Shown: positions 6,759 through 28,684 of the stretch, in pieces
Layout: the number at the start of each line of letters is the position of its first letter
How positions within the stretch are numbered: the first letter of the stretch is position 1
Virus record (IMG/VR): IMGVR_UViG_3300028591_000103
Location: 32,001 to 96,000 of that record
Length of the DNA stretch: 64,000 bases
Reading direction: 5' to 3' (one strand)
Origin: a virus
Taxonomy: Duplodnaviria; Caudoviricetes
The notes under the pieces: generated by a model
Seen by the model: only the letters and a program-made list of their open reading frames with translations
The model's database searches: none
Told to the model about the DNA's origin: nothing
Made by a program: the position numbers and the translations under genes

Positions 6759-7823
6759 TTACGCATTATCAGCGGTAAGCTTGTCCTGATCTGCCTTGAT
6801 CTGGTCACGGAACTGCGCACGCTTGTCCATGTTCTTCATGCCCTTGTTCTTGGCATAGAACTTTTCCTCGGCAGTATCAACACGCGTGTCAACTTCCTTC
6901 CACATCTCATCAGTCTTCTTACGAAGCTCTTCGATGCGAGCAGTCTGCTTGTTGTTTGCTTCAGTGAGATCCTGAAGAATCGACTTTGATAACTGGACCA
7001 TTGTGTTGAGAACCGAAGAATTACCTGACTTCTTCAGATCATCATAACCTTCTCCTTCGGCCGCAGAATCAGCGTTTTCCTTAAGGCCTGCACACATTTT
7101 CTTGATGCGTTCTGCATTCTTGATGGCATTATCAAAAGCAAAAGAAGCCTTTCTGGTATTTGCTTCAAATTCACCGGCCTTAACAAATGATGTCTTCTCA
7201 AGAGCCTTGGACATTTTCTTTGCAGGATCATTCATGATACGCATGATTTTTCTGAGAACATCAAGTGATTCCTTTTCACGACCGTTGTTCAGCTTCTCAA
7301 CGCAATCCTCAACCATTGTTGCATACTGCTCGTATGAATCAACAGCATCGATCAGAGCTTCGAAATCAAACCACGGAATCAGAGCGGTCCAGGTGTCGTC
7401 ATCGTTACGCTCAACCTTGAAACCGGCCTTCTTGCAAGCTTTGACAACTTCAGAGTTGTTGAATCTATTCAGCTTTGCAATGTTATCCTTGCTGAACTTG
7501 GAGAAGAAACCGACAATCTTCTCTTTGATTGCTCTGAAGAATTTGCAGATAGCTGTCCAGATTGTCTGAAGAAGTTTGCCAGGCTTGGAGTTCTTAAACC
7601 GCTCACCGAGAGACGGCTTCTTTTCACCTTCGCCGCCATCTGTCAGATCTGCTGCTTCCATAATGGAATATGCAACGTCAGGATCTTCAACAGATTCCTG
7701 AATCATCACAGACTTCAGATACACGTCAGCAAGTGAAATAAGCACATTAGCTTCTGATTCAAGCACAACGTCATCAATGGCGTCGATTCTTTCGAGGATA
7801 CTTTCCTGAATCATTTCATTCAT
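6759..7823 (-). CDS. Internal head (ejection) protein with conserved cleavable leader
   Basis: 354 aa, AAAGGAG RBS. MIQE|S occurs twice plus SIME|A, followed by an amphipathic basic helix. The leader is paralogous to that of 27440..28684. Confidence 0.6.
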   Translation of the reverse strand: MNEMIQESILERIDAIDDVVLESEANVLISLADVYLKSVMIQESVEDPDVAYSIMEAADLTDGGEGEKKPSLGERFKNSKPGKLLQTIWTAICKFFRAIKEKIVGFFSKFSKDNIAKLNRFNNSEVVKACKKAGFKVERNDDDTWTALIPWFDFEALIDAVDSYEQYATMVEDCVEKLNNGREKESLDVLRKIMRIMNDPAKKMSKALEKTSFVKAGEFEANTRKASFAFDNAIKNAERIKKMCAGLKENADSAAEGEGYDDLKKSGNSSVLNTMVQLSKSILQDLTEANNKQTARIEELRKKTDEMWKEVDTRVDTAEEKFYAKNKGMKNMDKRAQFRDQIKADQDKLTADNA

Positions 7824-7841
7824 GATGTAACACTCCTTTTA

Positions 7842-8435
7842 TTATTTTGAATATGAATCGATAGCATGCATGACAGGTGTTTTCGTGTCATAGAATGCCA
7901 TTCGATTTTCGATAGATGCGATCTTTGGATTGGTCTTCGAATTACGAGTTGCCAACCAAAGATACAGAGACATATCGTCGCGATATACTCTTGCCAATTT
8001 GTTGTATTGGTTACGAGTCATTGCAACGAGCTGCTGTGATTCAATGTCAGAAAGATTTTCATTGATAGATTCCATGGTATTTTTCAATGCCAGAGATCCT
8101 TCCAGAAAAGTCTGATTCACATTCTTCATGTCTTCCAATGTATGTCGGACACGGTATGGAGACTTTTCTGACATATCAGAAAACATTCCGTCATAGTATT
8201 TCTTTGTGATTGGGATTACCTTACCGTCGTATTTTGAGGTCTGATCATCCCCGTTACGATAAGAAACATATCCTTCCAGAAATGTATTCATTTCATTCAG
8301 GATCTTACCGTAATCAAGTGATGAATACATCACATCGTCTTTCGGTCGGATGTTCGGAACGGTTTTGGCAACGTCTTCGAACATTGTCCGATATTCACAA
8401 ACGATTTGTCCAATCTCTTTTGCCATAACTTTCAT
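7842..8435 (-). CDS. Hypothetical protein (start uncertain, 8426-8465)
   Basis: ORF of about 200 aa directly following the stop of the upstream gene; no motif recognised. Confidence 0.6.
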   Translation of the reverse strand: MKVMAKEIGQIVCEYRTMFEDVAKTVPNIRPKDDVMYSSLDYGKILNEMNTFLEGYVSYRNGDDQTSKYDGKVIPITKKYYDGMFSDMSEKSPYRVRHTLEDMKNVNQTFLEGSLALKNTMESINENLSDIESQQLVAMTRNQYNKLARVYRDDMSLYLWLATRNSKTNPKIASIENRMAFYDTKTPVMHAIDSYSK

Positions 8436-8437
8436 CA

Positions 8438-9475
8438 TCACCCTTCCGGAAGTGTAGCATTGCATCCCAACGGTACCAACGGAATTCTGACTTTCAGTAT
8501 CTGTGATAACATACGACCGAGTTCCGTTTGTAACTGCACAAGATGTTCACGAGTGTGAGGTACAATATACCGACAATCTTGTGTATCAATACATGTTAAA
8601 TAGAAATTCACAAGTTCCAATTTGGAACAAGTGTATCCAGCTATCATGGATTGATCGTTGACATCTTGAATGGCTCTGGATTCCATCTCAATATAAGCGA
8701 TAATATCATCAGGAATCGGTTTAAGACGTTTCGGTTTCTTTGAGAAGAATGCTTCCTCATATGTTTCATCATCACCGTAAGAATGACGATACTCTTCGTG
8801 TTCAGTATCGCCATCACCCATATCCATGTATTCATAGTCATCGTCATCAATGACTTCTTCATCATCCAGATCATGAATCTGTTTGAGTTCTTCTTTTGAA
8901 TCACGGACTTCGGCTTTCAGATCCTTGGGTAATGACTCGTGATCTCTGGCACCGAGATAATGATCAACCAGGTCATCAACTTCCTTGTCGTCTTCTGATT
9001 TACAACATTTCAGTTGATCCATGAATTGTTGACCATTCTGGATACCAGTCAAAGATATTTCAATCGTACCATCATCAGACATTCGTCCAATGATCCCTGA
9101 CAAGATGATTTTCAGATGTTTTGGTCCTTCAATACCATGACGAGTCATTGCATTGATCGGAACATTTGTCATTGTCAAACATTCCGCTTGGCGTTCAACA
9201 TCATCCGCATCATCGAATATGGTACCTTTTGCAATTGCTTCAGCAACGCTTTCCATCTGAATCTCCGAAACATCTTTCGGATATAACAAATGAATTTCAT
9301 CGTTGTTAGAATACACACGGACATCTGACCCAGTATAGGTCGATGCAACGACACGTTTATTCTTTGACGGATGTTTGATTTTCGCATATTCAGAAATCGC
9401 TTCAACTTTTCCACTCTTCAGAAATGCTTTAACCATATCACGTTCAAAACCATTCGTTAGCACACACTTCACCAT
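8438..9475 (-). CDS. Putative virion/head protein with acidic linker
   Basis: 345 aa, GAAAGGA RBS; D/E-rich linker ending TYEE|A, followed by a compact C-terminal domain. Confidence 0.6.
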   Translation of the reverse strand: MVKCVLTNGFERDMVKAFLKSGKVEAISEYAKIKHPSKNKRVVASTYTGSDVRVYSNNDEIHLLYPKDVSEIQMESVAEAIAKGTIFDDADDVERQAECLTMTNVPINAMTRHGIEGPKHLKIILSGIIGRMSDDGTIEISLTGIQNGQQFMDQLKCCKSEDDKEVDDLVDHYLGARDHESLPKDLKAEVRDSKEELKQIHDLDDEEVIDDDDYEYMDMGDGDTEHEEYRHSYGDDETYEEAFFSKKPKRLKPIPDDIIAYIEMESRAIQDVNDQSMIAGYTCSKLELVNFYLTCIDTQDCRYIVPHTREHLVQLQTELGRMLSQILKVRIPLVPLGCNATLPEG

Positions 9476-9510
9476 CCTTTCTTGTAAATTTAATTTGGAG
9501 GTAATTTAAA

Positions 9511-10032: not shown

Positions 10033-10040
10033 TAAATGAT

Positions 10041-10068: not shown

Positions 10069-10100
10069 TCACTTCAGGCGTTTGTTTGCCGGAGATTATA

Positions 10101-12362
10101 TTAGTCCTTGCTGTAATACTTGTTAGCAGCCCATGCCGGAGCAACACCAGTAACTGCAGTACGCTCACCTTCCTCGGTGTCAGCGACGAAGTAGGTGCTG
10201 TACGTGGTTGCCCAGTCAGCCGGCTGAGTCTGGATTGCAGTACCACCGGTTGCAGCGGTGAAGTAGAACTTGGAGGTATCGAACTGAGGAGCAACCGCAG
10301 TCACAGCCTCCATTGCAGTGCCACCAGCGTTCAGCTGATAGTAGTTGCCATAGGTGGTTGCCCAGTTATCCGGCTCAGAAGTGGTAACGGTGTAACCCTC
10401 AGTCGGATCGACCGGAGTATCACCACCAGCGACCGGACCAGCGTTGGAATCCGGAACCAGAACAGTGTTCTTGCAGATGACGCGACCCTGGATACCCTGG
10501 ATAGCGATCGTTCTGTACTGGCTGGAAGTGGTGACGATAACTGCTGCGCCGCCAGGATTCTGAGCATCAGCATATGCTGCGTTCTCCGGAGAATTGGTGA
10601 GGTGACGAGCGAAGCGGAGGTGCTTGTAGGAGATGTGGAACTTGTCCATCGGATATGCCACGATCTTGAAGAAGTATTCGCGGGACACATCACCCTCCTG
10701 ATGCTTCTCCTGATATGCCGGAATGGTGATGTATGCATCAACACGGTTGGAGGATACAACACGGATCGGAACATCAGTATCAGTGAGCACACCGAATGCG
10801 TGGTTCATCATGACACCGCCGATTTCGGTAGACTTCTGAACAGTCCATGTGGTGAACTTCTGGAGCAGACGAGCTGCCTTCGGGTTCGCATAGATAACGA
10901 AGCCGAGGTTGTCCAGCTTGCCCTTGTCGCAGAGCTCGTAGATAACAGAAGCGATTGCGTTGTGAATTGCATTCGTTCTGTACTCCCACGGATCGCCGGC
11001 GAAGTTCGGAGAAATCGCAGTCGGATCGAGATCGACATACTCGGTAGCAGTATAGGACTCGAGAGCCCAGATGTCGGTCTCAGTGCCGTCGTACTTTGCG
11101 AACTCCTCATCGAGGTACTGGAGAATGTACTCGTCTTCGAACATTTCCTGAGCAGTTACGAGCTCCTGAACGAGACGATTGTAGAGGTTGAAGTTCAGAG
11201 AAGAATTCGCTTCAGCAAAGTCCTCAACAGTAAACGGAAGCTGGAAGCGAACGCCGTCTGCGATTGTGAACTTGCGGATTTCCGGATACTCGCGGAAACC
11301 GATGGTTCTGAGGTTGGTCTCATTGGAGACGTGACCAGATACATAGATACCGGTAATAGTACCACAGGAAGTAGCGGTAATGGTACCCTTGATGAAGTCG
11401 ATGACACCAGAGAGACGATCTGCAACGCCGGTAACAGTTTCGCCGGTAGGCTTGTTGTTTGCATCAACAACAGTCAGCTTCATATCAGCTGTGATACCAC
11501 CGTTCAGGAACACACCACCGGTCTGGATATCAATCTGGATACCACCGTGCGGCAGGCGAACCTTCTTGCCGTCGATCTCAACATACTGAATGCCGAAGTC
11601 ATAGGACAGACGAGTACGAACGTTCGGAGTGATGGTGGTCGGATCACCATTGTCATCCAGCAGCCAGTTGAAGAGAGAATACTTCTTGTTGGTTGCAGCC
11701 TGGATGGTAGAAAGCGGGAGGACAGTGTTCTCATTGAGACGCAGGCCCTTACCAGCATTCCACAGCTTCTTCCACAGCGGCTGACCATCGTCATCCTTCT
11801 GGAAGTAGATTGCCGGGGTCTCATACTCCTCACCAGTCTGGTTGTTGACCAGATACTTGATGAAGATTCTCTGCTCAATGTTCACAGAGGAAGCGGTCTG
11901 GACCGGAATGATGTCCTTACCGAGGAAACGGATGTACTGCTTGATCAGCGCCGGGAAGTCCAGGGTGGACAGCGGCAGATAGTTAGCAACGTTGTAAGAC
12001 TCCTGGATCAGGAATGACTGCTTAGAAGCATCCCATGCGTTCTCCAGCTGATCTGCAACCTGCTCGAGGTGAACGCGCATTGCCGGCTCATTGGTCGGAT
12101 AAGAACGGAGCTCTTCGAGAACCGGCTCGAGCAGAAGGGTCTTATACTCGGTCATGATCTCATCAGAATCCATCATGCGCTTTGCTTCCTTCATAACGTC
12201 GACACCCATCTTGGATCTCATTGTGCCGACGACCTGCTCGAAGTGATCATCGAATCCATCGCGAAGACCGCGGAGCTCAGACTCAGAAGCATTGTTGACA
12301 AGGCTTTGCTGTTCCTGGAACCAGCTATCGTGGGTACCAGCACCATTACGTCTGAATGCCAT
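10101..12362 (-). CDS. Major capsid protein precursor (jumbo-phage type) with C-terminal extension
   Basis: AAAGGAG RBS before MAFRRNG. A ~121 aa propeptide ends FLIQE|S, then NYLPLSTLDFPALIKQYIRFLGKDIIPVQT, resembling the T4 gp23-like capsid N-arm. Codon bias is the strongest in the window (C/G-ending codons). Confidence 0.85.
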   Translation of the reverse strand: MAFRRNGAGTHDSWFQEQQSLVNNASESELRGLRDGFDDHFEQVVGTMRSKMGVDVMKEAKRMMDSDEIMTEYKTLLLEPVLEELRSYPTNEPAMRVHLEQVADQLENAWDASKQSFLIQESYNVANYLPLSTLDFPALIKQYIRFLGKDIIPVQTASSVNIEQRIFIKYLVNNQTGEEYETPAIYFQKDDDGQPLWKKLWNAGKGLRLNENTVLPLSTIQAATNKKYSLFNWLLDDNGDPTTITPNVRTRLSYDFGIQYVEIDGKKVRLPHGGIQIDIQTGGVFLNGGITADMKLTVVDANNKPTGETVTGVADRLSGVIDFIKGTITATSCGTITGIYVSGHVSNETNLRTIGFREYPEIRKFTIADGVRFQLPFTVEDFAEANSSLNFNLYNRLVQELVTAQEMFEDEYILQYLDEEFAKYDGTETDIWALESYTATEYVDLDPTAISPNFAGDPWEYRTNAIHNAIASVIYELCDKGKLDNLGFVIYANPKAARLLQKFTTWTVQKSTEIGGVMMNHAFGVLTDTDVPIRVVSSNRVDAYITIPAYQEKHQEGDVSREYFFKIVAYPMDKFHISYKHLRFARHLTNSPENAAYADAQNPGGAAVIVTTSSQYRTIAIQGIQGRVICKNTVLVPDSNAGPVAGGDTPVDPTEGYTVTTSEPDNWATTYGNYYQLNAGGTAMEAVTAVAPQFDTSKFYFTAATGGTAIQTQPADWATTYSTYFVADTEEGERTAVTGVAPAWAANKYYSKD

Positions 12363-12430
12363 AATTGATACAACTCCTTTATTATTATTTGATTTTGGTG
12401 TTGAGTAACTCAACAAAAGTTTTGGGCTTG

Positions 12431-13018
12431 TTATTCAGAATCTTTCTGAAACTTCTTCAAAACCGAATCGATTTCATTCTGCAACAAGGTGTACAGACTA
12501 TCGAGTTTCTGATAGAAAAGCAGATTCTCGCCGTAGCCCATGTTCACAAATTTATTCAGTGCATATTCCTGACCATTTGTGAGTGCTCGTTTCAATCGAT
12601 TGATTGATTTGTCGTTCTGAACAACGACATCGTTCGGGAGTACGGGCATAATAGCTTGCAGGTTATTCAAAGTCTCCTCGATTTCAGAGTTTCGTGTCAA
12701 CAACTGTTGATACAATTGCTGATTCAATACATCATTCACTTTCTTTGTGATATGATGATTGGTCGGATCCTCTTGATCTTGTTGACCTTCATCACCTGTA
12801 GCTTCATCCTCACCCCCGGTTTCATCGAAGCTAAGATCTTCCATTTCACCACCTGCATCAGGTGGTAGATCCGTCGCCTCCATGTCTGCCGGTGGTTGTT
12901 CACCTGTTGGACCTTGTTGCTGTTCTGGCATATCAGCAGCAGGCTCATCCGGTGGTGTGAATGGTTCCAGCAAATCTCCTTCTGCCTCCATGACAGTATA
13001 GAACAAGTTCATTCCCAT
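12431..13018 (-). CDS. Acidic head protein, possible scaffold/core component
   Basis: 195 aa directly upstream of the capsid gene; TVME|A near the N-terminus, acidic disordered half and helical C-terminus. Confidence 0.55.
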   Translation of the reverse strand: MGMNLFYTVMEAEGDLLEPFTPPDEPAADMPEQQQGPTGEQPPADMEATDLPPDAGGEMEDLSFDETGGEDEATGDEGQQDQEDPTNHHITKKVNDVLNQQLYQQLLTRNSEIEETLNNLQAIMPVLPNDVVVQNDKSINRLKRALTNGQEYALNKFVNMGYGENLLFYQKLDSLYTLLQNEIDSVLKKFQKDSE

Positions 13019-13039: not shown

Positions 13040-16000
13040 TTAGTAAACCGTCGACGCCAAAGAGAACTTGCGTCTCTGATTATCCGTTCCCATCTGAACG
13101 AGCTTTTGACGCATACGCATCAGCTTGTAAATTTCCTCTTGTGCAGAATCGTCATCACCATAACGACTTTTCGCTTTCAGGTTCTCGATTTTATCATCGA
13201 TGATCCGAATCTCGGTTGCGATCTCAGCGTCAGCTTCCTTGCGGAGGCGTTCTTTGTCTCCATGTCTCAGCGCTAGATGTGCGCCATATGCAATACCGAG
13301 ATATGGTGAAATATACGTAAAGATTGCAAGCTTACCAGTTTTCAATGCAATACGTGCGACTTTGTACAATGCGGAACGATAAGAAGGATTCTCGGTGAGC
13401 TCTTTCTTGACTTGGTTCTCATCTCTCTTAATGAGAGAATCAATGAACTTTGTCAACCAGTTCTTTGTACGTGATACCGGTTTAGCAATTTCTCTGCCGG
13501 TGTTCGTAAGTTTCTGTACACCGCGTTCCAGTTTCTGCTTAGTAGAAACAGTGGATTGATTGTCAGACATCGCGTCTGTCAATACATCATTACCAGCAGC
13601 CGATTCGACAAATAGGGGCTCTTCAGATGTAAGAAGTGCGAACACTTCTTGGACAGATTTTCCAGTGGAAAAAGTGTTTTCATCCTTAGAATTTGAAGAA
13701 GGTCTGGTATTATCATAATTGTTTGTTGGTGTTATTTTAGCACCACTGTTTGTCCGCTTATTTGTGGACAAATCATTGCTGGTCGATGATACTTGTGAAG
13801 TATTGTTCTTAACGTCAGACTTACCAGTTGAATGATCGTCAGTGGTGACATTCGATGTATTGTGGGAATTCGTATAGTTGTTCGTAATATTGTAAACAAC
13901 CGTTCCCTTTCCACCATTGCTCGAATTATCGATATTACCATTATAACCGGCACCAAGCATATCTCCAAGAGAATCTGCATTCGGATCATTCAGACGAGTA
14001 TCAATCGAATCTGCGAGATCATCAGGATCGTTCATCGGAACATCCGGAGGAAGTTGTGCATCGGTTACTGTCGGCTTCTTCTTTTTATCACCTTTTGCAT
14101 TATCCGCTTTGATTCTGTCTTTCAGGTACGCTGGCATATCACCAGTTTCCTGTTCTGTAACAGATTCAACATCTGTATCAGATGTATCATCAGCATCGGC
14201 ATCGGATAATTCTGAATCAGTAGGAGGATCCATGTCAACACCGTCTTCGGTTTTGAAGGTTGGTGTATCTCCACATTCCTCAACATCGTCGACTTTCTCG
14301 GTTTCTTCTTCCGGTTCATCTTCTTCAGTCGAAGGTTTGCCCTCCCAATCATCGAGATGTTCCAGAAGTGTATTTGTATCCGGTTCGAATGGTTTCAAAT
14401 CAGACATAAAGAGATTATCCATATTGAATGGATTATCAGAAACGAGAATCGTGCCATCCGCCGCATTCAGCCAAAGAACGTTGATTGAATCAGGATCGGA
14501 ATCATCATATGACTTTCCGTCAGGCATATATTCTGCAAACATCAAGACTTTGTTCTGCATGGAGAACTTACCGACATCCTCGGTATATTTGATACAGGCC
14601 AGAATATCGCCCCATCCAAATACATGACCGAGGCATCCACCCTTATCATATCCGATCGAAGTTAGCTTCTTCGGTACAGAATTAATGAACTGGATGAATT
14701 CCTTCGGGAGATGTTCTTGCATGTAACGTTCAATCTGAATGATCTTCTTCTTGGAAGATTTTTCCTTCAGTTTTGAAATAACACCTTCCTGAACAAATTC
14801 CTCATCATCATCCTTGAACAGATCATGGGATTCGCCGATATATCTGTCAATCAGGATTGGTGATATACCTTTATTATACAATGCATCGCCGAGAGTTGCG
14901 ATATCATTGTATACAGCGTCTTGCAACTGTTCACAGTACATCAGATCCGAAATTGATACATCCCCGAATTCCTTCAGGGTTTCAATCACAGATTCAGCCA
15001 CCTGATCAGAGCCCTCGACCGTTTCTTTTACTTCTTTCTTCTTCTGATATGGATTTGATGCACGGGAATTCTTGTTGACTCTTGCACGAATCGCTTTCAC
15101 GAATTCATCCTCGGAAGAATATTCTTTCGAAATCGGAGAGTCCTGTGAATTCGTGGCCAAACCATACATGAGATCGAAATAAATTCTGGAATCAAAGATA
15201 TTGAATACAGTGAGAAGTGTGTTGTTCATGATCACAGCATTCTCATCATTGATCAGATTCAGTTTCAAGAAGTCTTCGATAAATTTGATTGTGCCTTCCT
15301 TATCCGTCTTGAATGTGGAGAACAAATCGATTCTTTCGAAACGCTTTGCTCCATTATTCTTCGTCGAGATTGATCTGTATGATGCCAGATAATCACTCAT
15401 TGCTTCTGTACCGAGAACTCGCTTTGGATATTTCTTGGGGTTATCGAATACACGAAGAAGAATGCACGGAATCACATTATTCGCAAGCATGTCGACATTG
15501 TAGTCTGCTTTTGAGAATAATTCCATGAGATCATCTGTTGTATCACATTTCCGAAGATCCGAGATGATCTTATTGACAAGGCTTTCGAATTTCTTGGAGA
15601 TCTTCCATTTGCAAGAACCGTTTTTCGAATGACATTCAAACTGAATTTCATTCGGGGTTCTGTTCTGGAAATAGTTTGCAGTTGCAGCTTCCTGAACAGT
15701 TTCATCCACAACAACTTCCGCATCCGGAATATCAGTGAATGTCTGGAATCTCTGCACTTCGGTTTCCTGCTGAAGATCTTCGGGAAGTTTGATCTGATCA
15801 TTATCGAAAATGCTTCCGATATAATCAGCTGCATCAAACAACTTATACTCTCCAGGGAATTTCTCAATCTGATCAAGCTCCGGAAGCGGGATCGGAGATG
15901 TGAAGAGTTGAATTGCATCACGATACTGACTCGGTTTGGTGAACAGCTCGAATGAATAAACACCATTCAGCAGCTGATCAAACTTGTCAAAGTGATCTGC

Positions 16001-17065: not shown

Positions 17066-17557
17066 TTAATCGTATTCATACTTGTATCTGATACGAGTAT
17101 ACAATTTTCCAAGTTGATCATAAGTGATGCCTATGATAACTGGAGACATGTCCATGTGATATTCAAGCGTTTCTGTTCCTTCCACACGGATAATCATCGC
17201 CTGTTGTCCATCTGCGGTAATATCATGAAAAACTTGAATATCGATTCCGGTATAATTTAACCGATTCAATTGATCCGTTAATTTTGACTTGATTGTCATT
17301 GGAATATTTGGATCATCTGAATACTCGTGCAAATACTGTTCAACATCGATCCCCAGTTCGGGGATCGAAGGAAATTGTCCAGGTTTCATTTTCAACAATG
17401 TAAGAATCGCGTTAATACACATTTCAAATGTGGACAATACTTTTGGTTTGTACATCTCATCAACATCGAAGGATACATCATACCCGAGGGTCTGGAAACT
17501 CCTCGGGTATTTGTATGAAACTTCTGCCAATGTGATGCCACGCGGATCTAACGCCAT
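17066..17557 (-). CDS. Baseplate wedge / sheath-initiator protein (gp25-like)
   Basis: AILTLLKMKPGQFPSIPELGIDV matches the gp25-family pattern IL.T..G..P..P.FG. Confidence 0.7.
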   Translation of the reverse strand: MALDPRGITLAEVSYKYPRSFQTLGYDVSFDVDEMYKPKVLSTFEMCINAILTLLKMKPGQFPSIPELGIDVEQYLHEYSDDPNIPMTIKSKLTDQLNRLNYTGIDIQVFHDITADGQQAMIIRVEGTETLEYHMDMSPVIIGITYDQLGKLYTRIRYKYEYD

Positions 17558-18442: not shown

Positions 18443-18461
18443 ATTCAAACACTCTCCTTTC

Positions 18462-20238: not shown

Positions 20239-20982
20239 TCATCGATTGATTTCCTTCATAGAATTATGAAGTTTTTCAATGCTGTAATAAGATTCTGAGA
20301 TCAGATCTGTTTTAACGCCCATTGCTTTTAAAAACAAATCTGTTTGAAGCAATGTGGGTTTATCATATACACCAGTTTTGATGTCTTCCAGTTTGACAGA
20401 ACCAGAACGAGAAATCTCATCCAGCATATTGTCATATTCTGTGACATTGTCACCACGTGCACCAGATATCTCAGAAAGAACCGCATCTGCACCAACACCA
20501 GCAAGCAACTCGTTTTCAACACCTGTTGTAGTACCACCTTTGGATTCACCTTTGACAGCACCGGTGTTTTCATCACGATTGGTATCACTCAAAGCCAGAC
20601 CCGTCTTTTTCATGACCATTTGCTGAGGACGTTTGATGTTCAAATATCCAACAAGTACAGGTTCCTTGGTTCTTACGGGTCTGTTCGGGTCTGATGATAG
20701 ATGAGGCATGTAAACGTACTCGAATAACTTGATTCCGAGCAAGTTTGCAGCTTTTTCCAGATTCTCATATTTCAGTTTTCTGGATTCATCTCCAAACTCT
20801 TCAATGTCAACACGAATGTTTGATTTCGGATCTGCCAAGAATTTTGTGATCCAATCATTGAATTGTTGATCGGACATGACTTGAAACATCTTGCGATATT
20901 TCTCAGCATTCACTCCAGAAAGATCCATTGTTTTCAAGACATTATCGATGAGCGTTTGGACTTGTTTTCGTTTCTCATTCAA
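20239..20982 (-). CDS. Multisubunit phage RNA polymerase beta-subunit C-terminal fragment (phiKZ gp149-like, probably virion RNAP)
   Basis: 247 aa; PVLVGYLNIKRPQQMVMKK...RDENTGAVKGESKGG corresponds to the conserved rpoB C-terminal regions (V.VG..Y..KL.H...K; T.QP..G....GG). Confidence 0.75.
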   Translation of the reverse strand: MNEKRKQVQTLIDNVLKTMDLSGVNAEKYRKMFQVMSDQQFNDWITKFLADPKSNIRVDIEEFGDESRKLKYENLEKAANLLGIKLFEYVYMPHLSSDPNRPVRTKEPVLVGYLNIKRPQQMVMKKTGLALSDTNRDENTGAVKGESKGGTTTGVENELLAGVGADAVLSEISGARGDNVTEYDNMLDEISRSGSVKLEDIKTGVYDKPTLLQTDLFLKAMGVKTDLISESYYSIEKLHNSMKEINR

Positions 20983-21072: not shown

Positions 21073-23223
21073 TTACCAACGTCTTGGGCGAGAAATCTTT
21101 GATACAAGTTTAGCAGATTCCGTGACGGTAACTCCACCGCCCTTTGCAATCTTCTGGAGATGCTCATCCAGATTTTCAGCTTCCTTTGGATCAAAGAGTT
21201 GATCGGAGAATATCTCTTTGACATTGGTCTGTTCCAATGACGAGTAATTTTCGACAATCCACTCACAATATTTCTTGACTGATGGATCGAGTTTCTCTTT
21301 ACTTTCAAGAAGAGCTTTTGCAATCTTCATTCCTGCATAAGAACGTTCTGTAGCAGATGGGTGTGGATCCATAACCAATGTGCCGAGTTCACGTTCCAAT
21401 TTTGCAAGACGATTCAAACGTTCTGTATCAACCTGATTTGGTGTTAGTTTTGAGCCCAAACCACCGACGGCGAATGCTTGAGGGAGATTATACATACCTG
21501 CAAACAAGTCTGCATAATATTCTTCCTTATTGGTTCTATTGAGATATGCTTCAACCTGTTTTGCATATTCACCACCATCGTTCGCTTTTACTAAAGCGCC
21601 TATGCATAATATGAGTCCGATTGGAGCTAATATGCCTGTACATGTCAATACGATTCCAATGATAAACATTGCTTTCGATTTAGAACCTTGACTTCTTGAT
21701 TTTTCAGAAGCTTTCTTCTTTTCATTCAATTGACTCACATAAGACTGGAGACGTTCCATATATCGATCCAGATGTTCCAGATCTTCAGGACCCGCTTTCT
21801 CCACTTCACGCTTTAATTCTTCGATAGCGTTTTCATTGTACTTTGTTGCGGCGATTGACATCAATTGTTTTACGAGTTTGCGTTTCACAAAACGACCAAT
21901 CTTCTGTTGTCCAGTAGCAGTAATCGCGTTGATTGCATTAGTCAGAACAGCACGACGGGATTTGATATTGTCTGTACTGGATGCAAGCATAACTGCGGAA
22001 GCCATGACTGCGATATATCCATCTGTCTCTTTTCTGATGGCCGCGGAGATATTATGCCAAATCTCATGAAGGATAATCGACATGATTGCTTGACCATACA
22101 TCTCACGGTCATTCTGTGCAGGATTGATTTTAACGATATCACCAGCCAGAATCACATCAATCGGAAGTCCATGCAACTGGAATCCTTTTGCTTTTGAAAT
22201 GGAAACTGGTTGTGGAACGTCGCTGTATGTCGGTGTGTAACCATCGGTGACTTTCCGACCATTCTTATCTCGGACATCAAAGAATCGAACTGCAAGATGG
22301 CAATCAAACTGAGATTCAATCAGTTTAATCGCTGATTGGAATTTCGGTTTTCTGATCAACTCTTTGAAATCAAAATCTTTTGTTTCAATTTCACTTCTCG
22401 CTTCATTGATCAACTTGACAGCACGGAAGATATTCTTGTTGTCAAACTTCATGTATCGAAGATCTTCAGCCTTTGCGGCTTTGGGCTGTTTTGCAGCTTC
22501 TTGAATCATCGTATGTGTTTTATCCACATAATCAAATCCAAGAGATTGCATTTCTTCATAACCCATGTATGTAGAACCATGATGTTTATCAAACAAATCA
22601 ACATGGAATGCACACTCATGAATGTTTTCTGAGATATCATGTGCTGCTTTCTCCAGATCAATCTTCGAATCAGATGCTGTTGGAAGATTATTCATGATAT
22701 CATCTTCATCTGTGAAGTACGACTTCGGTTTCGATGGTTCTGAAACATAATCCGGAATCAACTTTTGTGAACGGAGTTCAGCAACCTTTGCATTTGCTGC
22801 AGGTGTATTCTCCATGTCAACAAGACCGGAAGAATATACAATGATTTCATTTCCATCGGAATCAAAATGACGACTGATAACTTCACCCTTCGAAGGATCG
22901 GGTGTCTTCTGAGAAGCATTCAATTTATTCTTCTCAATCTGATCTGCCTGATAATTATCAAGCTTTTCATTTACGCGTTGAGAAATGTTATCGAGAACAG
23001 CACCAATCGCACAAACAATTGCCTTTGTATTTGCAGACGGATTTGGACGATCCGGTGCAAGGATTGTATCTCCTTGCACCTGAATCGAATTTGCTCGATC
23101 ATCAACGACAATATTCTCAGCAGGAATCTGATACATCGCAGCAACAGCTTCCAATGCAGTAATCAGCGAATCAGAATTCTTTATCGCCTTTTCTACGGCT
23201 TCTTTTGTGATTTCAGATGTCAT
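21073..23223 (-). CDS. Head protein with zincin (M48-like) metallopeptidase domain and hydrophobic segment
   Basis: GAAAGGAGG RBS before MTSEI (23223). Motifs IILHEIWHN, EEYYADLFA and DPHPSATER; flanked by MIQE|A and TVTE|S. Confidence 0.7.
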   Translation of the reverse strand: MTSEITKEAVEKAIKNSDSLITALEAVAAMYQIPAENIVVDDRANSIQVQGDTILAPDRPNPSANTKAIVCAIGAVLDNISQRVNEKLDNYQADQIEKNKLNASQKTPDPSKGEVISRHFDSDGNEIIVYSSGLVDMENTPAANAKVAELRSQKLIPDYVSEPSKPKSYFTDEDDIMNNLPTASDSKIDLEKAAHDISENIHECAFHVDLFDKHHGSTYMGYEEMQSLGFDYVDKTHTMIQEAAKQPKAAKAEDLRYMKFDNKNIFRAVKLINEARSEIETKDFDFKELIRKPKFQSAIKLIESQFDCHLAVRFFDVRDKNGRKVTDGYTPTYSDVPQPVSISKAKGFQLHGLPIDVILAGDIVKINPAQNDREMYGQAIMSIILHEIWHNISAAIRKETDGYIAVMASAVMLASSTDNIKSRRAVLTNAINAITATGQQKIGRFVKRKLVKQLMSIAATKYNENAIEELKREVEKAGPEDLEHLDRYMERLQSYVSQLNEKKKASEKSRSQGSKSKAMFIIGIVLTCTGILAPIGLILCIGALVKANDGGEYAKQVEAYLNRTNKEEYYADLFAGMYNLPQAFAVGGLGSKLTPNQVDTERLNRLAKLERELGTLVMDPHPSATERSYAGMKIAKALLESKEKLDPSVKKYCEWIVENYSSLEQTNVKEIFSDQLFDPKEAENLDEHLQKIAKGGGVTVTESAKLVSKISRPRRW

Positions 23224-23242
23224 ATAAATTCCTCCTTTCATA

Positions 23243-26200
23243 TTATGTGTTTGATGGATTTTCTGCCGGAGTTTCTGGATTAACTGCCTGATCCGCTGTC
23301 GGAGTCCCAGCTTTCTCTGCACCATTTTCTTGAGGATTAACCGTATTCACAGCATTTTCCTTTGCAGCCTTTCCAGATGTTTGTGCCTGGTATGCATCAA
23401 CAATCTTCTTATACGCTTCATAATACGTATTGAAGAATTCTTTGGTGATGGTGTTGATTGTGTTCATCTGATAATTCGCAGCAACTTCCTGAAGCATATC
23501 GAACATCTTTTGAGCATTGGACTTTCCACCCTGAGTATTGGTGTCTTCACCGCCGTTTTGTTGAGCTTTATTGGCAGCAGCTTCATCAGATTTCATCTGT
23601 GATTCAACAGCCTTCAATGATGTTTGAAGAGCCTTTGTCATACTGCGAGAAACTTCTTCAATGAGCTTCTGAGAATTCAGCAGATCAGATACGATTGAAT
23701 TCCAGATGTCTGCAGTCATCGCACCAGTGTAACTTGTTTGCTGTTCATTTGGTTCTGTTGTGCTGAAAAGAATATAATTCTTTATCAGTTTCACAGCATC
23801 TTCCTTCTGAGCCTGAGCAATCTTCGTAGCTGTTGCATCATCACCCGGATAAAGATCAGCTTTATAATTCTGAAGCTCTTCATCCGTAATTGGATTATCT
23901 TTATTCGCGCCAAGGAATTTCGCGGTCACATTTTGAACATTCGCTTCCTTGGATAACACATCCTTTGCAGGAATCTTGTACATTGGGAAATACTTCAAAT
24001 TCGGTTTGAAGTTTCCGTTTGCAATCGCCTGACCAATGCTCTTGTTAACTTTGTCATGAGTCTTGATCCAAGCGGTCTTTGCAGCATTCAATGCATTAAA
24101 CGAATTCGGAACATTCGCAAACTTTGTCTGGATCCATTTACCGAAGCTTCTGATTAATCCAGTCAATTTCGAAAGAACACCATTCTTCGGTGCTGTGTTG
24201 ACAGGTTGTCCACCGATCTCAACTTGTGGACCGCCATTATTTTCTTTACCTTCATCTGCTTCAGTAAATACGAACTGTTCGCAATATGTGAATCCGGGAA
24301 TCATTGTATCACACATATTATCATCGTATGTAATGACGGTATGTGTATTATGATACAGCTTCAGAACATTCTTTGTGAAGCATTCACCGAGCACACAGAG
24401 AATATCCGTAACAAGTTGACGATTACATGTTAATCCGACAGAATCGATTATGTGATGCATCACACCAGAAATACGAATAATATTATCTGCAATATCCGAA
24501 TTATCTTTTAATGTGCATCCACAATACATTCTATGAAGCATCTTCATTGTTTCAACAAGAGGATGACGTTCATCATTGCCGACTGCATCCAGACGATAAT
24601 TGGAATCATAGAATTGGTTACCATAAGAAATCTTATCTAACCAATTCACATCCGTGAAGAATGAACATCTGTCAGCAAGGAATCCACGACCATTGTCATT
24701 CAATCCAAAGTCTTCTTCACATTTATGGAAGTATGGGCGGAACATTTCAATGGTAGGTGCACACATTGCATATGTCGGTAATGAATCCATTGTAGAATAC
24801 TTGACAAGCATTGTGCGAATAGGCGAACGTTCCGACTTCAACATGAAATGAATTGCACTCTTTGTATCCTTGAAATTCGGGGTGCAATCTTGTAATACAA
24901 CATTTCTCATGTTGCAATCAAACGGCATCCGTGTGCTGAGATTCACATCATTGGTTTTGATAATCGCACATTCCATGACACATTCTTGCCAAGGTTTTGC
25001 AACTTTCGTACGTGCAAATGATTTCATTTTCTTGTCGACATCTTCGCCATTGTAATCCTTGGCATTTCCGTCGAATACAAGTTTGCATTGATCCGGTGTC
25101 ATTTCCGCAGCATCACGCATCTGTTGTGGAGAAGGAACGGCCTTATCAGAAAACGCCTTTCCACACATCTTAATCAGGTCATTCGTAAATGTTGTACAGA
25201 TCTTCTTGGTATCATCCTTGGAACCAGTTGTATCATCATTGAATGCCTTCTTGATCAATAATCCAATATCGAACTTGGAATTGTCCTTATCATCATAACG
25301 ACGCAATGCTTCTTGATGGATTGCTTCATGAGCATCTTTCGGAATATAGAATCCGAATACACAGATGTCTTTATCCGCAAGATTGGATGCTTGTAATGAT
25401 TCACGTTTCATACCCATCTTCTTAGGATGATCCGGATCATCTTGCAATCTTGCTCCATAAGAGAACATCTCCTTCAGACCGGCATCAAATGCAAGAGAGC
25501 AATGGGACCATTTTGATTTTGTAATCTTTTGGATCTGATGGCTCAATGGTGCAGTGCCTGACGAAAGAACGATGAACAACGGAGCATACTCTCTTCTGCT
25601 GAAAGATTCCTGGGTAATGATTTCTCCACGTCTATCTTTGGAATCAAATGTAGAACGCGGAATTGCATAAGCGATCATCTGTTCCAGAGTACATGTATTC
25701 AGAGAGCAAACAAACAGAATGAATGTCTCGATGTATTTCATAACGAGACCGCAGTCACAACAAACGATTCCATCTCTGAGAGAATCCTTCATTGTATCTT
25801 TAATAGTATTCGGAAGCGCATTGACAACTGCTTTCATTGCAGCAGGGAAATGCATACCATTAATAGTATCATAATCCTTCTTCATATCTTTTGCACGTTC
25901 CGTCAGCTCATACTTTGAATATACAGCTCTGTCAAAGAATGTGTTCTGTGCTTGTACCAGAAGATCGAGCAATGTTTCTGTACGAGGATCCATATAAGAA
26001 TCGAATCCAAGCAGATTATCTCGACACATCTTCACACCACTGTTATCAACGACAAATTGTTTCGCCAGTTCAACTGATAATTTCTCCAGATCAGGAACAT
26101 TGCATGCAACCAGTCTTTTTGATATTGCTTTGAAAAGATATGAGATGTAAGATGCAATATCTTTTGGAGTGATGTAGATCATCTGATAACGTGTATTACA

Positions 26201-26377
26201 GATACCATATGATTCCGTGAACTTTGATCCTTTTACAATGGATTCGAGTTGATCCAATGTATCATCATAGACTTTCAGAGATTCTGAAAAAGCAGTCAAG
26301 AAATCCGAACCAAACTCAAGCTTCGGCTTTCCGTCTGTCTTATTCACATCAATGATATCCATTACTTTATCGGACAT
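23243..26377 (-). CDS. Large head polyprotein containing a permuted papain-like (NlpC/P60, YiiX-like) domain
   Basis: 1044 aa; SKWSHCSLAFD...FSYG...FD...KKICTTF with His before Cys; FTE|S, ITQE|S, CVME|C and VFTE|A motifs. Confidence 0.7.
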   Translation of the reverse strand: MSDKVMDIIDVNKTDGKPKLEFGSDFLTAFSESLKVYDDTLDQLESIVKGSKFTESYGICNTRYQMIYITPKDIASYISYLFKAISKRLVACNVPDLEKLSVELAKQFVVDNSGVKMCRDNLLGFDSYMDPRTETLLDLLVQAQNTFFDRAVYSKYELTERAKDMKKDYDTINGMHFPAAMKAVVNALPNTIKDTMKDSLRDGIVCCDCGLVMKYIETFILFVCSLNTCTLEQMIAYAIPRSTFDSKDRRGEIITQESFSRREYAPLFIVLSSGTAPLSHQIQKITKSKWSHCSLAFDAGLKEMFSYGARLQDDPDHPKKMGMKRESLQASNLADKDICVFGFYIPKDAHEAIHQEALRRYDDKDNSKFDIGLLIKKAFNDDTTGSKDDTKKICTTFTNDLIKMCGKAFSDKAVPSPQQMRDAAEMTPDQCKLVFDGNAKDYNGEDVDKKMKSFARTKVAKPWQECVMECAIIKTNDVNLSTRMPFDCNMRNVVLQDCTPNFKDTKSAIHFMLKSERSPIRTMLVKYSTMDSLPTYAMCAPTIEMFRPYFHKCEEDFGLNDNGRGFLADRCSFFTDVNWLDKISYGNQFYDSNYRLDAVGNDERHPLVETMKMLHRMYCGCTLKDNSDIADNIIRISGVMHHIIDSVGLTCNRQLVTDILCVLGECFTKNVLKLYHNTHTVITYDDNMCDTMIPGFTYCEQFVFTEADEGKENNGGPQVEIGGQPVNTAPKNGVLSKLTGLIRSFGKWIQTKFANVPNSFNALNAAKTAWIKTHDKVNKSIGQAIANGNFKPNLKYFPMYKIPAKDVLSKEANVQNVTAKFLGANKDNPITDEELQNYKADLYPGDDATATKIAQAQKEDAVKLIKNYILFSTTEPNEQQTSYTGAMTADIWNSIVSDLLNSQKLIEEVSRSMTKALQTSLKAVESQMKSDEAAANKAQQNGGEDTNTQGGKSNAQKMFDMLQEVAANYQMNTINTITKEFFNTYYEAYKKIVDAYQAQTSGKAAKENAVNTVNPQENGAEKAGTPTADQAVNPETPAENPSNT

Positions 26378-26434
26378 AAGACAAATCTCCTTTTCATAAA
26401 ATTTGAAATAACAAAACCCTCTACAAGCAGAGGT

Positions 26435-26447
26435 TTAACAACTCGTT
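26435..26447 (-). promoter_or_regulatory. Candidate late promoter AAC-N7-TAA (AACGAGTTGTTAA)
   Basis: Upstream of the head-protein operon; shares TGTGGAAAACGA with the site at 52343..52355. Confidence 0.55.
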
Positions 26448-26688
26448 TTCCACATTATAATACTTCGCTTTTTAAAATGAAAAAAAAAATAAAATTTCGT
26501 ATATATTTCATTTCCATGAAATGAAATCTCATTTCATATTCATTACAAAACACTGCCAATCAACATTCCAATTATCATTGGGGATATTTTTGAAAAAATC
26601 ATAATAGAAAATTATCATGCTGATTGGACATTATATATTATCTTTTGACAAAATTTTAATCACTTGAGAAAGGAGGATACTATATATC

Positions 26689-27435
26689 ATGCGTAATACT
26701 CGTTGTCCTTTTTGTATCAAAATTTTTAATGACAAACATCAATTCTGTCATCACATAGCCAACGTTCATAATGATCAAACTCCAGAGGACGCTGATCCTC
26801 TGGAGTTTGCTTATTCTTTATTGGTTCATAAACCGATTGGAAGAATCTGTGTCATGTGTCGCAATAACAAAGTGAATTTCAATCAACAGAGTTTGAAGTA
26901 TGACAGAATTTGTTCAGATCCAAAGTGCAAAGAAGCTTATGTCAAAATGATGAAAGCTAGAATGGTGAAAGTCCATGGACAGGAGCATCTTTTAAATGAT
27001 GCCGATATGCAACGAAAAATGATTTATAATCATCCAAACGCACGGGATTTCGTTTGGGATGAAGATCACAAATTTCGGGTGATCGGTACTTATGAAGAAG
27101 ATTTCTTGAAGAAATTGAGATCTATTGGATGGAGTCCAAACGATGTAATTGCACCGTCTCCAAATAATTATTGGTACAAATGGAAAGATGGTACATTGCA
27201 TCTATATATTCCCGATTTCTATATCCCTTCTTTGTCTCTTGAGGTTGAAATCAAAGAATCAGATAATCATCATCCGAGAATGGAACATGCTCGGGAAATT
27301 GAACATCTGAAAGATCAACGTTTAAGAGATGAAGAAAAGAAAACCCATATCCATTATATCAAGATCGTTGATAAAAACTATGACGAATTCATGCGGGATT
27401 ATGTTAAATCCGATGAAAATAAACCGGAGGATTAA
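26689..27435 (+). CDS. C2H2 zinc-finger / PD-(D/E)XK endonuclease-like protein
   Basis: CPFC-x12-H-x4-H, a second CxxC...CxxxxC cluster, and YIPDFYIPSLSLEVEIKES; AAGGAGG RBS. Confidence 0.7.
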   Translation: MRNTRCPFCIKIFNDKHQFCHHIANVHNDQTPEDADPLEFAYSLLVHKPIGRICVMCRNNKVNFNQQSLKYDRICSDPKCKEAYVKMMKARMVKVHGQEHLLNDADMQRKMIYNHPNARDFVWDEDHKFRVIGTYEEDFLKKLRSIGWSPNDVIAPSPNNYWYKWKDGTLHLYIPDFYIPSLSLEVEIKESDNHHPRMEHAREIEHLKDQRLRDEEKKTHIHYIKIVDKNYDEFMRDYVKSDENKPED

Positions 27436-27439
27436 TTAT

Positions 27440-28684
27440 ATGAATGAACTTTTGCAATGCATTGATCAAATCGATCAATCTGTGAATGATGCTGAAATCA
27501 ATGTTCTCGAAGCTCTTATCGGATCATATGATAAAGCATTAATGATACTTCAAGAATGTGAAGTCTCTGATTATTCCGCCTTCGAAATTTTCCAGGAAGG
27601 TGAAAAGTGGGATAAGTTTAAGGAAGATACCAAAGCTCCCATTCTTGGAAATAAGGGTGAGAGTCTCATCAAACGTATTCTTATGATTATACCACGTTTG
27701 ATCCAAAAGATCGCTGCGCTTATAGCAAAAGCGTTTACAAGAAACAAAGCATCGAAACAAAAAATGGAAAACGATGTTCAAACATTGAAACAAGCGGTAC
27801 AAACTTCTGAACCGTTTGAAAAATTTGAACCAAATGAGTTTGAACCGAACAAATTTGAAGCTGAACCACAACAACAACCACAACAACAACCACAGCAACA
27901 ACCACAGATGCAAACAATCGAACCCCCGAAAAGAGATGAATCAGAACCACAAGCTTCTGGGAATGAAGAAACGAATTTAGAAGATGTTATTCTTCATGTC
28001 AAAGGTGCGACATTTTTCGGTCAAAAATTATGGGATCTTTCGAAGATTTTTGATAAGGATTCTGATTTAGAATCGCCAGCGATAAAAGTATCATTTTCAA
28101 TCCCAATGGAGTTATACGGCAAACAGGAAGCGAATGATAAAGTAAGGGAAGCACTTCATCAAGTTGATCAAACTATTAAACGTTTAGAGTATGAATATAA
28201 ACTTTTAGAACAGGGAAGGAAAGAAAGTCGCGAATTTCGTGTAAGAATCGGTGATGCTGTTGAAGTTTTTGAAAAAATGAAAGCGGTCTTTAATGAGAGA
28301 CATGACAAAAGAAACCAAACAATCAACACACTCAATAGTATCATTAAAGATCTTGACAAAGCAAATGCTGAATTCAAAAAGAAATACGACGCTAATGCTA
28401 TGAATTTCCTTCGTGGATTTCAAGCTAGTTCAATGGTCATGTCAGAAGAACAATGGGACGAATATAATCGTAAAGAAAATGCGTGTCTTCAGCTTTGGTT
28501 AAATTATACACAAGGAGTGTCCGAAATCGTATCATTGATGTCGAATATAACAGCTACTGAGATGAGAGTGTGGGATAATAACTACAAAGTCGTCATGGAT
28601 GCTGTCAATGAGATTAAAAATAATAATCAATCGGATTTGGGCAAAACCAAAACCATTAATTTGTCCAAACGTAATACCAACTAA
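27440..28684 (+). CDS. Internal head (ejection) protein with conserved cleavable leader
   Basis: GGAGG RBS before MNELLQCID at 27440. Leader paralogous to 6759..7823; ILQE|C and IFQE|G motifs. Confidence 0.65.
   Translation: MNELLQCIDQIDQSVNDAEINVLEALIGSYDKALMILQECEVSDYSAFEIFQEGEKWDKFKEDTKAPILGNKGESLIKRILMIIPRLIQKIAALIAKAFTRNKASKQKMENDVQTLKQAVQTSEPFEKFEPNEFEPNKFEAEPQQQPQQQPQQQPQMQTIEPPKRDESEPQASGNEETNLEDVILHVKGATFFGQKLWDLSKIFDKDSDLESPAIKVSFSIPMELYGKQEANDKVREALHQVDQTIKRLEYEYKLLEQGRKESREFRVRIGDAVEVFEKMKAVFNERHDKRNQTINTLNSIIKDLDKANAEFKKKYDANAMNFLRGFQASSMVMSEEQWDEYNRKENACLQLWLNYTQGVSEIVSLMSNITATEMRVWDNNYKVVMDAVNEIKNNNQSDLGKTKTINLSKRNTN
27813..27907 (+). repeat. In-frame short tandem repeats encoding FEPNE/FEPNK and (PQQQ)3
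   Basis: CCACAACAACAA-type 12-mers (x3) preceded by TTTGAACC 15-mers. Confidence 0.7.

Follow-up and report, generated by a model that had tools for sequence, protein, structure and literature searches.

In phiKZ, 201phi2-1 and SPN3US, processing of the capsid, portal and internal head proteins by gp175/gp245, a protease of family Peptidase_S80, is established, and Glu-specific cutting of capsid and ejection proteins by a gp21- or gp175-type enzyme is already known from T4 as well as from these three phages. Cutting after Glu has been measured or reported for the gp21/gp175/gp245 family (PMC10052503, PMC9026906). The cuts mapped in SPN3US and phiKZ take N-terminal propeptides off several head proteins, including the capsid and portal proteins; in SPN3US these propeptides are 111-254 residues long and carry several sites each, and the protease itself loses a 64-residue C-terminal propeptide (PMC10052503, PMC5694885, PMC9026906). 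In T4, foreign proteins fused to the capsid targeting sequence are packaged and cut (PMC9026906), and the so-called polyvalent proteins have been proposed to accompany phage DNA and to be cut into active parts (PMC5512222). Here, we analyse a window of 64,000 nucleotides (bases 32001-96000 of the 151,638-base IMG/VR virus record IMGVR_UViG_3300028591_000103), whose region 6759..28684 carries the head-assembly genes of an uncultured AR9/phiKZ-type jumbo phage.

A first-pass annotation had read a recurrent hydrophobic-(Q/T/M)-E motif in this region as the site of a prohead protease, and the genes as encoding polyproteins whose domains, swappable as cassettes, are diced in the capsid into a 'cocktail of injected effectors'. 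This interpretation was supported in part: the protease, the behaviour of the sites and the swappable cassettes are borne out, a proposed pilin-like helix is not, and the 'cocktail' is an inference. The best explanation, which we hold to be probable though some way from secure, is that carrier proteins and leaders cut by an S80 protease deliver site-flanked cassettes from the head. The protease (His106/Ser173) would cut after Glu in a hydrophobic-x-Glu sequence, with Gln strongly preferred at P2 and Ser, Ala or Gly at P1'. It would trim itself at both ends, strip a 139-residue propeptide from the major capsid protein and a leader of about 55 residues from a family of internal head proteins, and cut three carrier families internally. 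The conserved blocks of the carriers would bring the chain into the prohead, where the protease would release the cassettes; the released domains would stay with the DNA and exit with it at infection. The cell wall would then be the target of a hydrolase, and host toxins that of SUKH modules. Comparison with relatives shows predicted folded cassettes that are bounded on both sides by candidate sites and that are gained, lost, duplicated and moved at these sites. The predicted cassette types are a permuted NlpC/P60 hydrolase, SUKH immunity-type modules, HExxH metalloproteases and a membrane-helix segment. Such turnover suggests, without proving, a plug-in loading of capsid cargo. For the motif counts, 138 open reading frames (ORFs) were called on the whole record and expectations were derived from shuffled sequences; orthologs were aligned from 32 related loci.

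As had been annotated, the head module encodes a prohead protease, which proves to be of the S80 type. Its position, invariant residues and candidate self-cleavage sites (throughout, a slash marks the predicted cut) are as follows.

17579..18469, minus strand: prohead protease, Peptidase_S80 (phiKZ gp175) type (Pfam PF20034, phrog_3014)
codons 18386..18394: candidate self-cleavage site FVQE/S at E28
18152..18154: H106
17951..17953: S173, within FSVR
codons 17807..17815: candidate self-cleavage site IHQE/S at E221

The match to PF20034 (residues 62-252) lies above the curated cut-off by a small margin (24.5 bits versus 23.4; 23.6 bits in a genome search), and phrog_3014 (head maturation protease) is matched with E = 1.5e-10; a search of the PDB with the protease sequence gave no matches. 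Residues H106, S173 and H207 are invariant in 27 orthologs. The pattern C-F-[VI]-Q-E/[AS] at E28 is conserved in 27/27 of these, and the second site, [VHY]-Q-E/[SG], lies about 75 residues from the C-terminus and shifts between orthologs. Since the site positions correspond to those of the cuts measured in SPN3US and phiKZ, the motif is probably the cleavage site of the S80 protease. With phiKZ, 201phi2-1 and SPN3US the locus thus shares the S80 family and, as predicted here, cuts after Glu, a long N-terminal propeptide on the capsid protein and C-terminal trimming of the protease. A 125-aa ORF at 133092..133469 of the genome (101092..101469 on the window scale) resembles protease residues 51-113, with 34% identity over 64 aa; a truncated protease paralog of this kind is also known from SPN3US (PMC5694885).

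The capsid gene and two smaller genes of the head module carry sites in the N-terminal part of their products.

10101..12416, minus strand: major capsid protein, 771 aa (phrog_20655, major head protein, E = 2.3e-10)
codons 12000..12008: predicted propeptide boundary FLIQE/SY at E139 of the capsid protein
12431..13018, minus strand: acid-rich protein, 195 aa, adjoining the capsid gene in a scaffold-like position
codons 12986..12994: N-terminal site LF..[VI]ME/A (V-M-E/A here) at E11 of the acid-rich protein, conserved in all orthologs
18462..19703, minus strand: 413-aa head-module protein directly upstream of the protease
codons 19632..19640: N-terminal site NLIQE/SS at E24 of the 413-aa protein

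In the capsid protein, F-x-[IV]-Q-E/S-Y at E139 is kept in 100% of 20 orthologs. In the family of the 413-aa protein, most of 19 orthologs retain [ILV]-Q-E/[SAT], with flanking sequences only 28% identical to the window protein. The P1 Glu is invariant in the aligned orthologs at capsid E139, protease E28 and E451 of the largest carrier (described below), amid variable flanking sequence. The AR9 protein gp115, whose gene adjoins the AR9 capsid gene, has the same layout as the 195-aa protein, an acidic stretch followed by a helical tail. A site of the same type, ILQE/S, occurs at residues 82-84 of the AR9 major head protein gp116 (locus L044, 8470..10065), so the hydrophobic-Q-E preference may be general in this branch. 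At the other end of the capsid protein, residues 670-771 (10101..10409) hold two (N/D)WATTY(G/S)xY(Y/F) units, and the C-terminus is 30-37% identical to that of a 1517-aa protein encoded upstream of the window. From this similarity, the C-terminal ~100 residues may be a shared surface or decoration domain.

All motif instances quoted in the first-pass annotation exist in the sequence, and the motif proved real in a narrower form than the one described. The form [ILVFMCTH]-Q-E-[SAG] occurs 13 times in the head-region proteins versus 1.4 +/- 1.3 in shuffles (z = 8.6) and 14 times in the rest of the genome versus 5.5 expected (Fisher odds ratio 5.5 for the head comparison, p = 3e-5). The enrichment proposed for head over non-structural proteins likewise holds for this narrow form, with 13 sites in 6987 aa versus 2 in 17388 aa (odds ratio 16, p = 5e-6). 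The full hydrophobic-(Q/T/M)-E pattern is weakly enriched in the head region relative to shuffles (32 versus 20.7, z = 2.6); in the same comparison, neither hydrophobic-T-E alone (10 versus 8.9, z = 0.4), nor hydrophobic-M-E alone (5 versus 4.8, z = 0.1), nor the phiKZ rule [SAG]-x-E (88 versus 92.0, z = -0.5) is enriched. Several sites with T or M at P2 sit at fixed positions in orthologs despite this lack of enrichment in counts. Two further details of the earlier description were too broad: the motif is not found in 'nearly every' head-region protein, being absent from 7842..8465 and 17066..17557, and it stands at the end of an acidic linker in only 3 of the 22 candidate sites, with a mean upstream acidity of 0.21 versus a background of 0.16. 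A chance or compositional pattern devoid of biological meaning would fit the weak enrichment of the broad form and the absence of enrichment with T or M at P2. It seems scarcely credible given the z-score and odds ratio of the narrow form, the conservation of sites amid variable surroundings and the position of insertion boundaries at the motif.

Within head proteins the narrow motif is clumped. Pooled conserved sites have hydrophobic residues at P4 and P3 (V, I, L or F at P3), Gln at P2, Glu at P1 and Ala, Ser or Gly at P1'. Unlike the S/A/G-x-E preference of phiKZ and the A-x-E preference of SPN3US (PMC10052503), the preference deduced here, with its hydrophobic P3 and mostly Gln at P2, appears closer to the T4 rule. 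An S80 protease with a T4-like site preference matters for the prediction of mature virion proteins in uncultured jumbo phages. A DNA-level repeat as the origin of the motif was considered and rejected: the motif codons vary, which makes the motif a protein-level signal. The excess of the narrow motif outside the head region is confined to a few proteins, mainly one of 1208 aa with six copies. This protein is encoded at 111045..114671 of the genome (79045..82671 on the window scale, beyond the window end); its six [VI]QE/[SAG] sites have a Poisson p = 7e-8, and it looks like another cleavable polyprotein.

The simplest arrangement of leader and cargo occurs in two genes at the margins of the region.

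6759..7823, minus strand: leader-plus-cargo protein, 354 aa; leader residues 1-56 (7656..7823), with sites MIQE/S at E7, MIQE/S at E43 and SIME/A at E56
27440..28684, plus strand: leader-plus-cargo protein, 414 aa; leader 27440..27598, with sites MILQE/C and EIFQE/G

For the second gene the start had been placed at 27329; the probable start is 27440, after an endonuclease gene. The first ~55 residues of the two proteins are homologous, and a hidden Markov model (HMM) of the leader matches only these two in the 151-kb record. This leader also begins 27 paralogs in related loci, frequently in tandem groups of three or four, and their sequences diverge downstream of it. The family comprises 65 database clusters; in a 40-sequence alignment with a mean column identity of 25%, the F-Q-E-G at the leader end is nearly invariant. 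One of these 40 members (P0150) matches phiKZ_IP (PF12699, internal head proteins) with E = 3.9e-6; the two window proteins have no phiKZ_IP match at E <= 0.01. A shared N-terminal leader that ends in a putative protease site and precedes different cargo corresponds to the layout of T4-type targeting sequences. As in T4 IPI, IPII, IPIII and Alt, the N-terminal peptide ends in hydrophobic-x-Glu and is followed by variable cargo, which in T4 is delivered to the host. Unlike T4, the protease here is of the S80 and not the gp21 family, the leader is about five times longer and much of the cargo is embedded in conserved carriers as cassettes flanked on two sides, not placed behind a leader. Paralogous internal head proteins and multi-site N-terminal regions are also shared with phiKZ, 201phi2-1 and SPN3US (PMC5694885, PMC10052503).

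The largest carrier is encoded between the protease gene and the scaffold-like and capsid genes.

13040..17041, minus strand: carrier polyprotein, 1333 aa
16703..17041: block 1, residues 1-113
16133..16702: cassette A, residues 114-303, starting with a transmembrane-type helix, between VVQE/F and VTTE/A
14786..16132: conserved core, residues 304-752, with the internal site TVQE/AA at E451
14147..14785: cassette B, residues 753-965, between FVQE/G and VTEQE/TG; residues 753-905 are SUKH-like
13043..14146: block 3, residues 966-1333

The family of this carrier comprises 307 clusters of 745-1569 aa. Orthologs of ~900 aa consist of three blocks matching window residues 6-100, ~303-745 and ~965-1333 (BLAST, 30 orthologs). 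Relative to these, the window protein has two extra segments, 114-303 and 753-965, the first of them ending with the VTTE at residue 303. The internal D-E-T-V-Q-E/A-A site at E451 is present in 30/30 orthologs with its Glu invariant, and in a wider set of 35 sequences Q450, E451 and A452 are all invariant; across the 30 carrier orthologs, P2 (Q, M, I, T, N) and P3 (V, K, L, Y, F) vary beside an invariant Glu. At the position of cassette B (site B), insert length in 119 database family members varies between 0 and 660 aa and clusters around 150-250 and 350 aa. The carrier of locus L028 has three consecutive site-B inserts, separated by FVQE/S, VFQE/A, VFQE/S and MEQE/T. A role of the protein as the portal is unsupported, a 35-member profile having no PDB or PHROG match, and BLAST detects no paralogy among the carriers within the source genome.

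The SUKH assignment made in the first-pass annotation is moderately supported. For a model of residues 753-905 (pLDDT 68), the top three fold matches are all SUKH, led by 3d5p (Z = 6.2, r.m.s.d. 3.8, 105 residues) and followed by Syd (Z = 4.6) and YobK (Z = 3.4), with the following row at Z = 2.4. The window cassette itself has no Pfam match; SMI1_KNR4 matches the site-B cassettes of relatives with E = 5.7e-5 to 6e-3, P0094 and P0098 carry precomputed PF09346 matches and the NCBI name of P0107 is SMI1/KNR4. The pilin-like helix proposed for cassette A is not conserved: FTL(I/L)E occurs in two of four orthologs, the other two starting with GVI, and the N_methyl profile PF07963 scores 14 bits versus a cut-off of 21.2 over positions 7-26 only, with Glu as residue -1. 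All four orthologs of cassette A have a transmembrane-type hydrophobic helix directly after the site, followed by basic residues.

A second carrier family bears a peptidase-type cassette.

23243..26377, minus strand: carrier protein, 1044 aa
24971..25606: permuted NlpC/P60 (YiiX/TseH-like) cassette, residues 258-469, between ITQE/S and CVME/C
25502..25504: invariant His of the cassette
25196..25198: invariant Cys of the cassette
24260..24268: site FVFTE/AD at E706 of the carrier; F-x-x-E/AD is fixed in the family

The earlier assignment of this cassette as a permuted NlpC/P60 domain is supported both by the predicted fold and by an invariant His-before-Cys pair. The model (pLDDT 71, pTM 0.76) has as its top Foldseek match the permuted NlpC/P60 structure 3kw0 (probability 1.0, TM-score 0.52-0.58, or 0.52-0.53 if normalised by query length, as are the TM-scores that follow). 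The YiiX structure 2if6 (probability 0.82, TM-score 0.45) and the type VI effector TseH, 6v98 (probability 0.57, TM-score 0.39), matched more weakly, and PPPDE1, 3ebq (E = 3.1, probability 0.07), far more weakly. In five copies, His35 and Cys137 (cassette numbering) do not vary, the Cys following the His by about 100 residues. One copy occurs in relatives L034 and L036, two tandem copies in L038 and none in L035 and L037, where the junction consists of KLITE/C or of two sites 12 residues apart. The V-T-E, I-T-E and V-M-E sequences flanking the cassette are at fixed positions in orthologs. A search for related loci with the carrier protein found none, these five relatives being reached by a separate genome search, and a word-based homolog search with the cassette alone gave no matches. 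Pfam searches of ten predicted fragments at E <= 1 gave no match for SUKH, NlpC/P60 or zincin and only the sub-threshold N_methyl match. An additional FTE/S at residue 55 of the carrier is not conserved and is probably not a site.

Metalloprotease-type sequences occur both as a separate head-region protein and as cassettes, the latter in relatives of the largest carrier and of a third carrier.

21073..23223, minus strand: HExxH protein with a membrane hairpin; HEIWH at 22054..22068
22498..22506: site MIQE/A at E276 of the HExxH protein
21118..21126: site VTVTE/S (V-x-V-T-E/S) at E736 of the HExxH protein
8438..9475, minus strand: third carrier, basal form without a cassette, 345 aa
9251..9259: candidate site IQME/S at E75 of the third carrier

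Residue numbers of the HExxH protein count from the ORF start at 23325; the start at 23223 given in the first-pass annotation is the probable one. Its E276 and E736 sites are conserved in five aligned sequences (the window protein and four relatives). The protein had also been called a zincin. The HEIWH motif is indeed present; otherwise the call has a weak protein-atlas lead to viral Peptidase_M48 clusters (0.83), and no Pfam match was found. In locus L026, the C-terminal HExxH/membrane domain is fused instead to the leader module, the join being at MIQE/A. In the third carrier, an acidic linker joins an N-terminal to a C-terminal block; the orthologs range from 327 to 865 aa, with inserts in the linker. 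The 865-aa ortholog, in locus L014, has an HEEGH cassette between YVQE/G and YVTE/S that shares 34% identity (E = 2.5e-14) with the third cassette of the L028 ortholog of the 1333-aa carrier, so related cassettes occur in different carriers. The view of the domains as swappable cassettes is thereby upheld, by three carrier families in which the cassette copy number is zero, one or at least two, and by the occurrence of related HExxH cassettes in two different carriers.

A protease other than the S80 enzyme might make the cuts. Jumbo phages of this group have a conserved head-region zincin that has been proposed to process virion proteins (PMC7824862), AR9 gp117, annotated as 'zincin protease', adjoins the AR9 capsid gene and self-processing has been proposed for the peptidase domains of polyvalent proteins (PMC5512222). 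Candidates would be the HExxH protein 21073..23223, the cysteine peptidase cassette or a host enzyme. We consider this very improbable, since Glu-specific cutting has been measured or reported for the gp21/gp175/gp245 family (PMC10052503, PMC9026906), the S80 protease bears the motif at both ends, like known self-cleavage positions, and the zincin protein is itself flanked by the motif.

The proposal that insertions and deletions coincide with the motif was examined in pairs of members of the 1333-aa carrier family having site-B flanks at least 80% identical and a length difference of at least 100 residues. A single long gap was placed per pair, and each gap end was scored by how far it lay from the closest motif. 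Of the left ends of 23 non-redundant events, 20 had a hydrophobic-x-E-[SAG] sequence no more than 6 residues away, as did 20 of the right ends, versus 9.5% for random positions; with hydrophobic-Q-E, 18 of the 23 right ends did so versus 4.2%. Because both ends of an insert carry a site, each added cassette brings one additional site. Splitting of site-B inserts by the motif would be circular for boundaries and was used solely for counting cassette families. An earlier version of the test, based on global alignment to the shortest ortholog, fragmented the inserts spuriously and was dropped.

In another reading, the motif marks module joints that are uncut at the internal positions and represent a linker or recombination signature, with only the capsid protein, protease and leaders processed and the carriers remaining intact polyvalent proteins. 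Phage polyvalent proteins are often packaged whole, as is the N4 virion RNA polymerase (PMC5512222), and short repeats such as ESY(D/N)IF, which flank some insertions, could drive duplication and deletion. Against this, the internal joints match the classical sites in their P3-P1' pattern, every extra cassette adds a site, and the P1 Glu is retained despite variation at P2 and in the codons, a sign that selection acts on the peptide; intact carriers are, on this evidence, quite unlikely.

Several points weigh against the delivery of cassettes that we favour. The boundary events are not phylogenetically independent, and all 23 fall at one hot spot that already holds a resident site. The fold models, based on 3-5 aligned sequences, are of moderate confidence (pLDDT 68-71). 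No PHROG, Pfam or PDB family matches the carriers, so that their location in the capsid is argued from gene position and the motif. Some copies of the motif lie within conserved, probably folded regions, for example KSVQE/VF at residue 1132 and RLVQE/L in the capsid protein, and may escape cutting. In SPN3US, 13 of 14 mapped cuts take N-terminal propeptides, which mostly leave the head (PMC10052503), and retention of internal pieces would be an extrapolation from such systems. Cleavage, packaging and ejection are all inferred, the ejection step purely so.

This last point, together with the fact that core and propeptide fragments of T4 and SPN3US mostly exit the head (PMC5694885, PMC10052503), favours an explanation in which the sites are cut and the pieces are assembly material. 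The carriers would then be core or scaffold proteins, diced for clearance or compaction, and the inserts would have their role inside the prohead or the producing cell (SUKH modules, for instance, countering host toxins late in infection) or be passengers with none after entry. The place of the largest carrier gene between the protease and the scaffold-like and capsid genes fits this explanation, as does the long N-, S- and T-rich stretch of low complexity in block 3. However, folded pieces of 150-210 residues would seem too big to exit in the manner of short peptides, the invariance of His and Cys suggests that the hydrolase cassette is still active, no substrate within the capsid is obvious for a peptidoglycan-type hydrolase and rapid cassette turnover among close relatives fits host conflict better than assembly. 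We therefore judge a purely assembly-related role to be rather unlikely.

Cutting by the S80 protease and delivery of the cassettes from the head remains our preferred account. A more general form of it is possible, if somewhat doubtful: in this clade, any folded domain placed between two sites in a conserved carrier would be loaded into the prohead, freed and delivered with the DNA, SUKH arrays would be pre-made antidotes to toxin-based defences of the host, the hydrolase would serve in crossing the wall and the flanks would also be the joints for swapping cassettes among carriers and among phages. If the cuts and the delivery are true, a changing set of enzymes and antidotes is loaded by means of one short peptide on each side of a domain, which would explain the fast diversification of internal head proteins, widen the known phage counter-defences to include immunity modules delivered by the virion and provide a design rule for packaging foreign proteins in large capsids that extends the T4 targeting-sequence method.

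The arrangement may be compared with polyvalent proteins (Iyer et al., 2017; PMC5512222), with which it shares long multidomain proteins encoded among late or virion genes and shuffled conflict-related and cell-wall domains. In polyvalent proteins the processing is assigned to embedded peptidases (PMC5512222), whereas the joints here carry the putative site of a separate capsid-maturation protease, and the carriers, unlike polyvalent proteins, have conserved non-enzymatic blocks. Each window carrier that bears cassettes has one or two that can be identified; 23243..26377 and some relatives of the other carriers have a cassette of peptidase type, which 13040..17041 lacks. The polyvalent-protein survey does not mention SUKH (PMC5512222). 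The predicted folds match SUKH proteins (SMI1/KNR4, Syd) and permuted NlpC/P60 proteins (YiiX, BcPPNE 3kw0, TseH), which elsewhere are stand-alone immunity genes or secreted effectors; here these domains, with predicted activities, are internal, site-bounded segments of a head module. What differs from known systems is thus the T4-like preference of an S80 protease, the presence of folded domains flanked by sites on two sides and varying in copy number within long carriers, whereas SPN3US cuts are mostly N-terminal, and the role of SUKH modules as the dominant variable cargo.

The source record has a CheckV completeness of ~56%, and contigs related through the capsid protein reach 295 kb. Nearly all genes in 6759..28684 are on the minus strand, and the region includes a piece of RNA polymerase.

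20239..20982: piece of a split multisubunit RNA polymerase, within the head region

Neither the capsid protein nor the DNA of the whole 22-kb region had a match among 50,697 cultured-phage records. An RNA polymerase subunit (42022..43935) shares ~33% identity with its counterparts in Bacillus phages AR9/PBS1 and in Staphylococcus jumbo phages, and the protease shares 24-27% with the enzymes of AR9 and Yersinia phage phiR1-37; by these identities, the source phage is a deep, uncultured branch of the AR9/phiKZ-type jumbo phages.

The 207-aa protein encoded at 7842..8465, one of the two head-module proteins lacking the motif, is kept in the module and has a weak match to Imm71, an immunity-protein family, at E = 8e-4, under the cut-off. 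Two adjoining giant paralogous ORFs of 2665 and 2572 aa have shared stretches that are 29-68% identical. The second, on the minus strand, fills 1..5667 of the window and continues upstream beyond it, so that the short plus-strand ORFs listed there are probably spurious. Beyond the head region, 28834..30867 encodes a 677-aa protein with an N-terminal Amidase_2 endolysin domain, of which residues 493-609 are 36% identical to part of a 320-aa protein encoded upstream of the window. The tail-region genes 57416..57757 and 57786..59798 adjoin, and their products are headed by a common N-terminal module, the first 75 residues being 52% identical.

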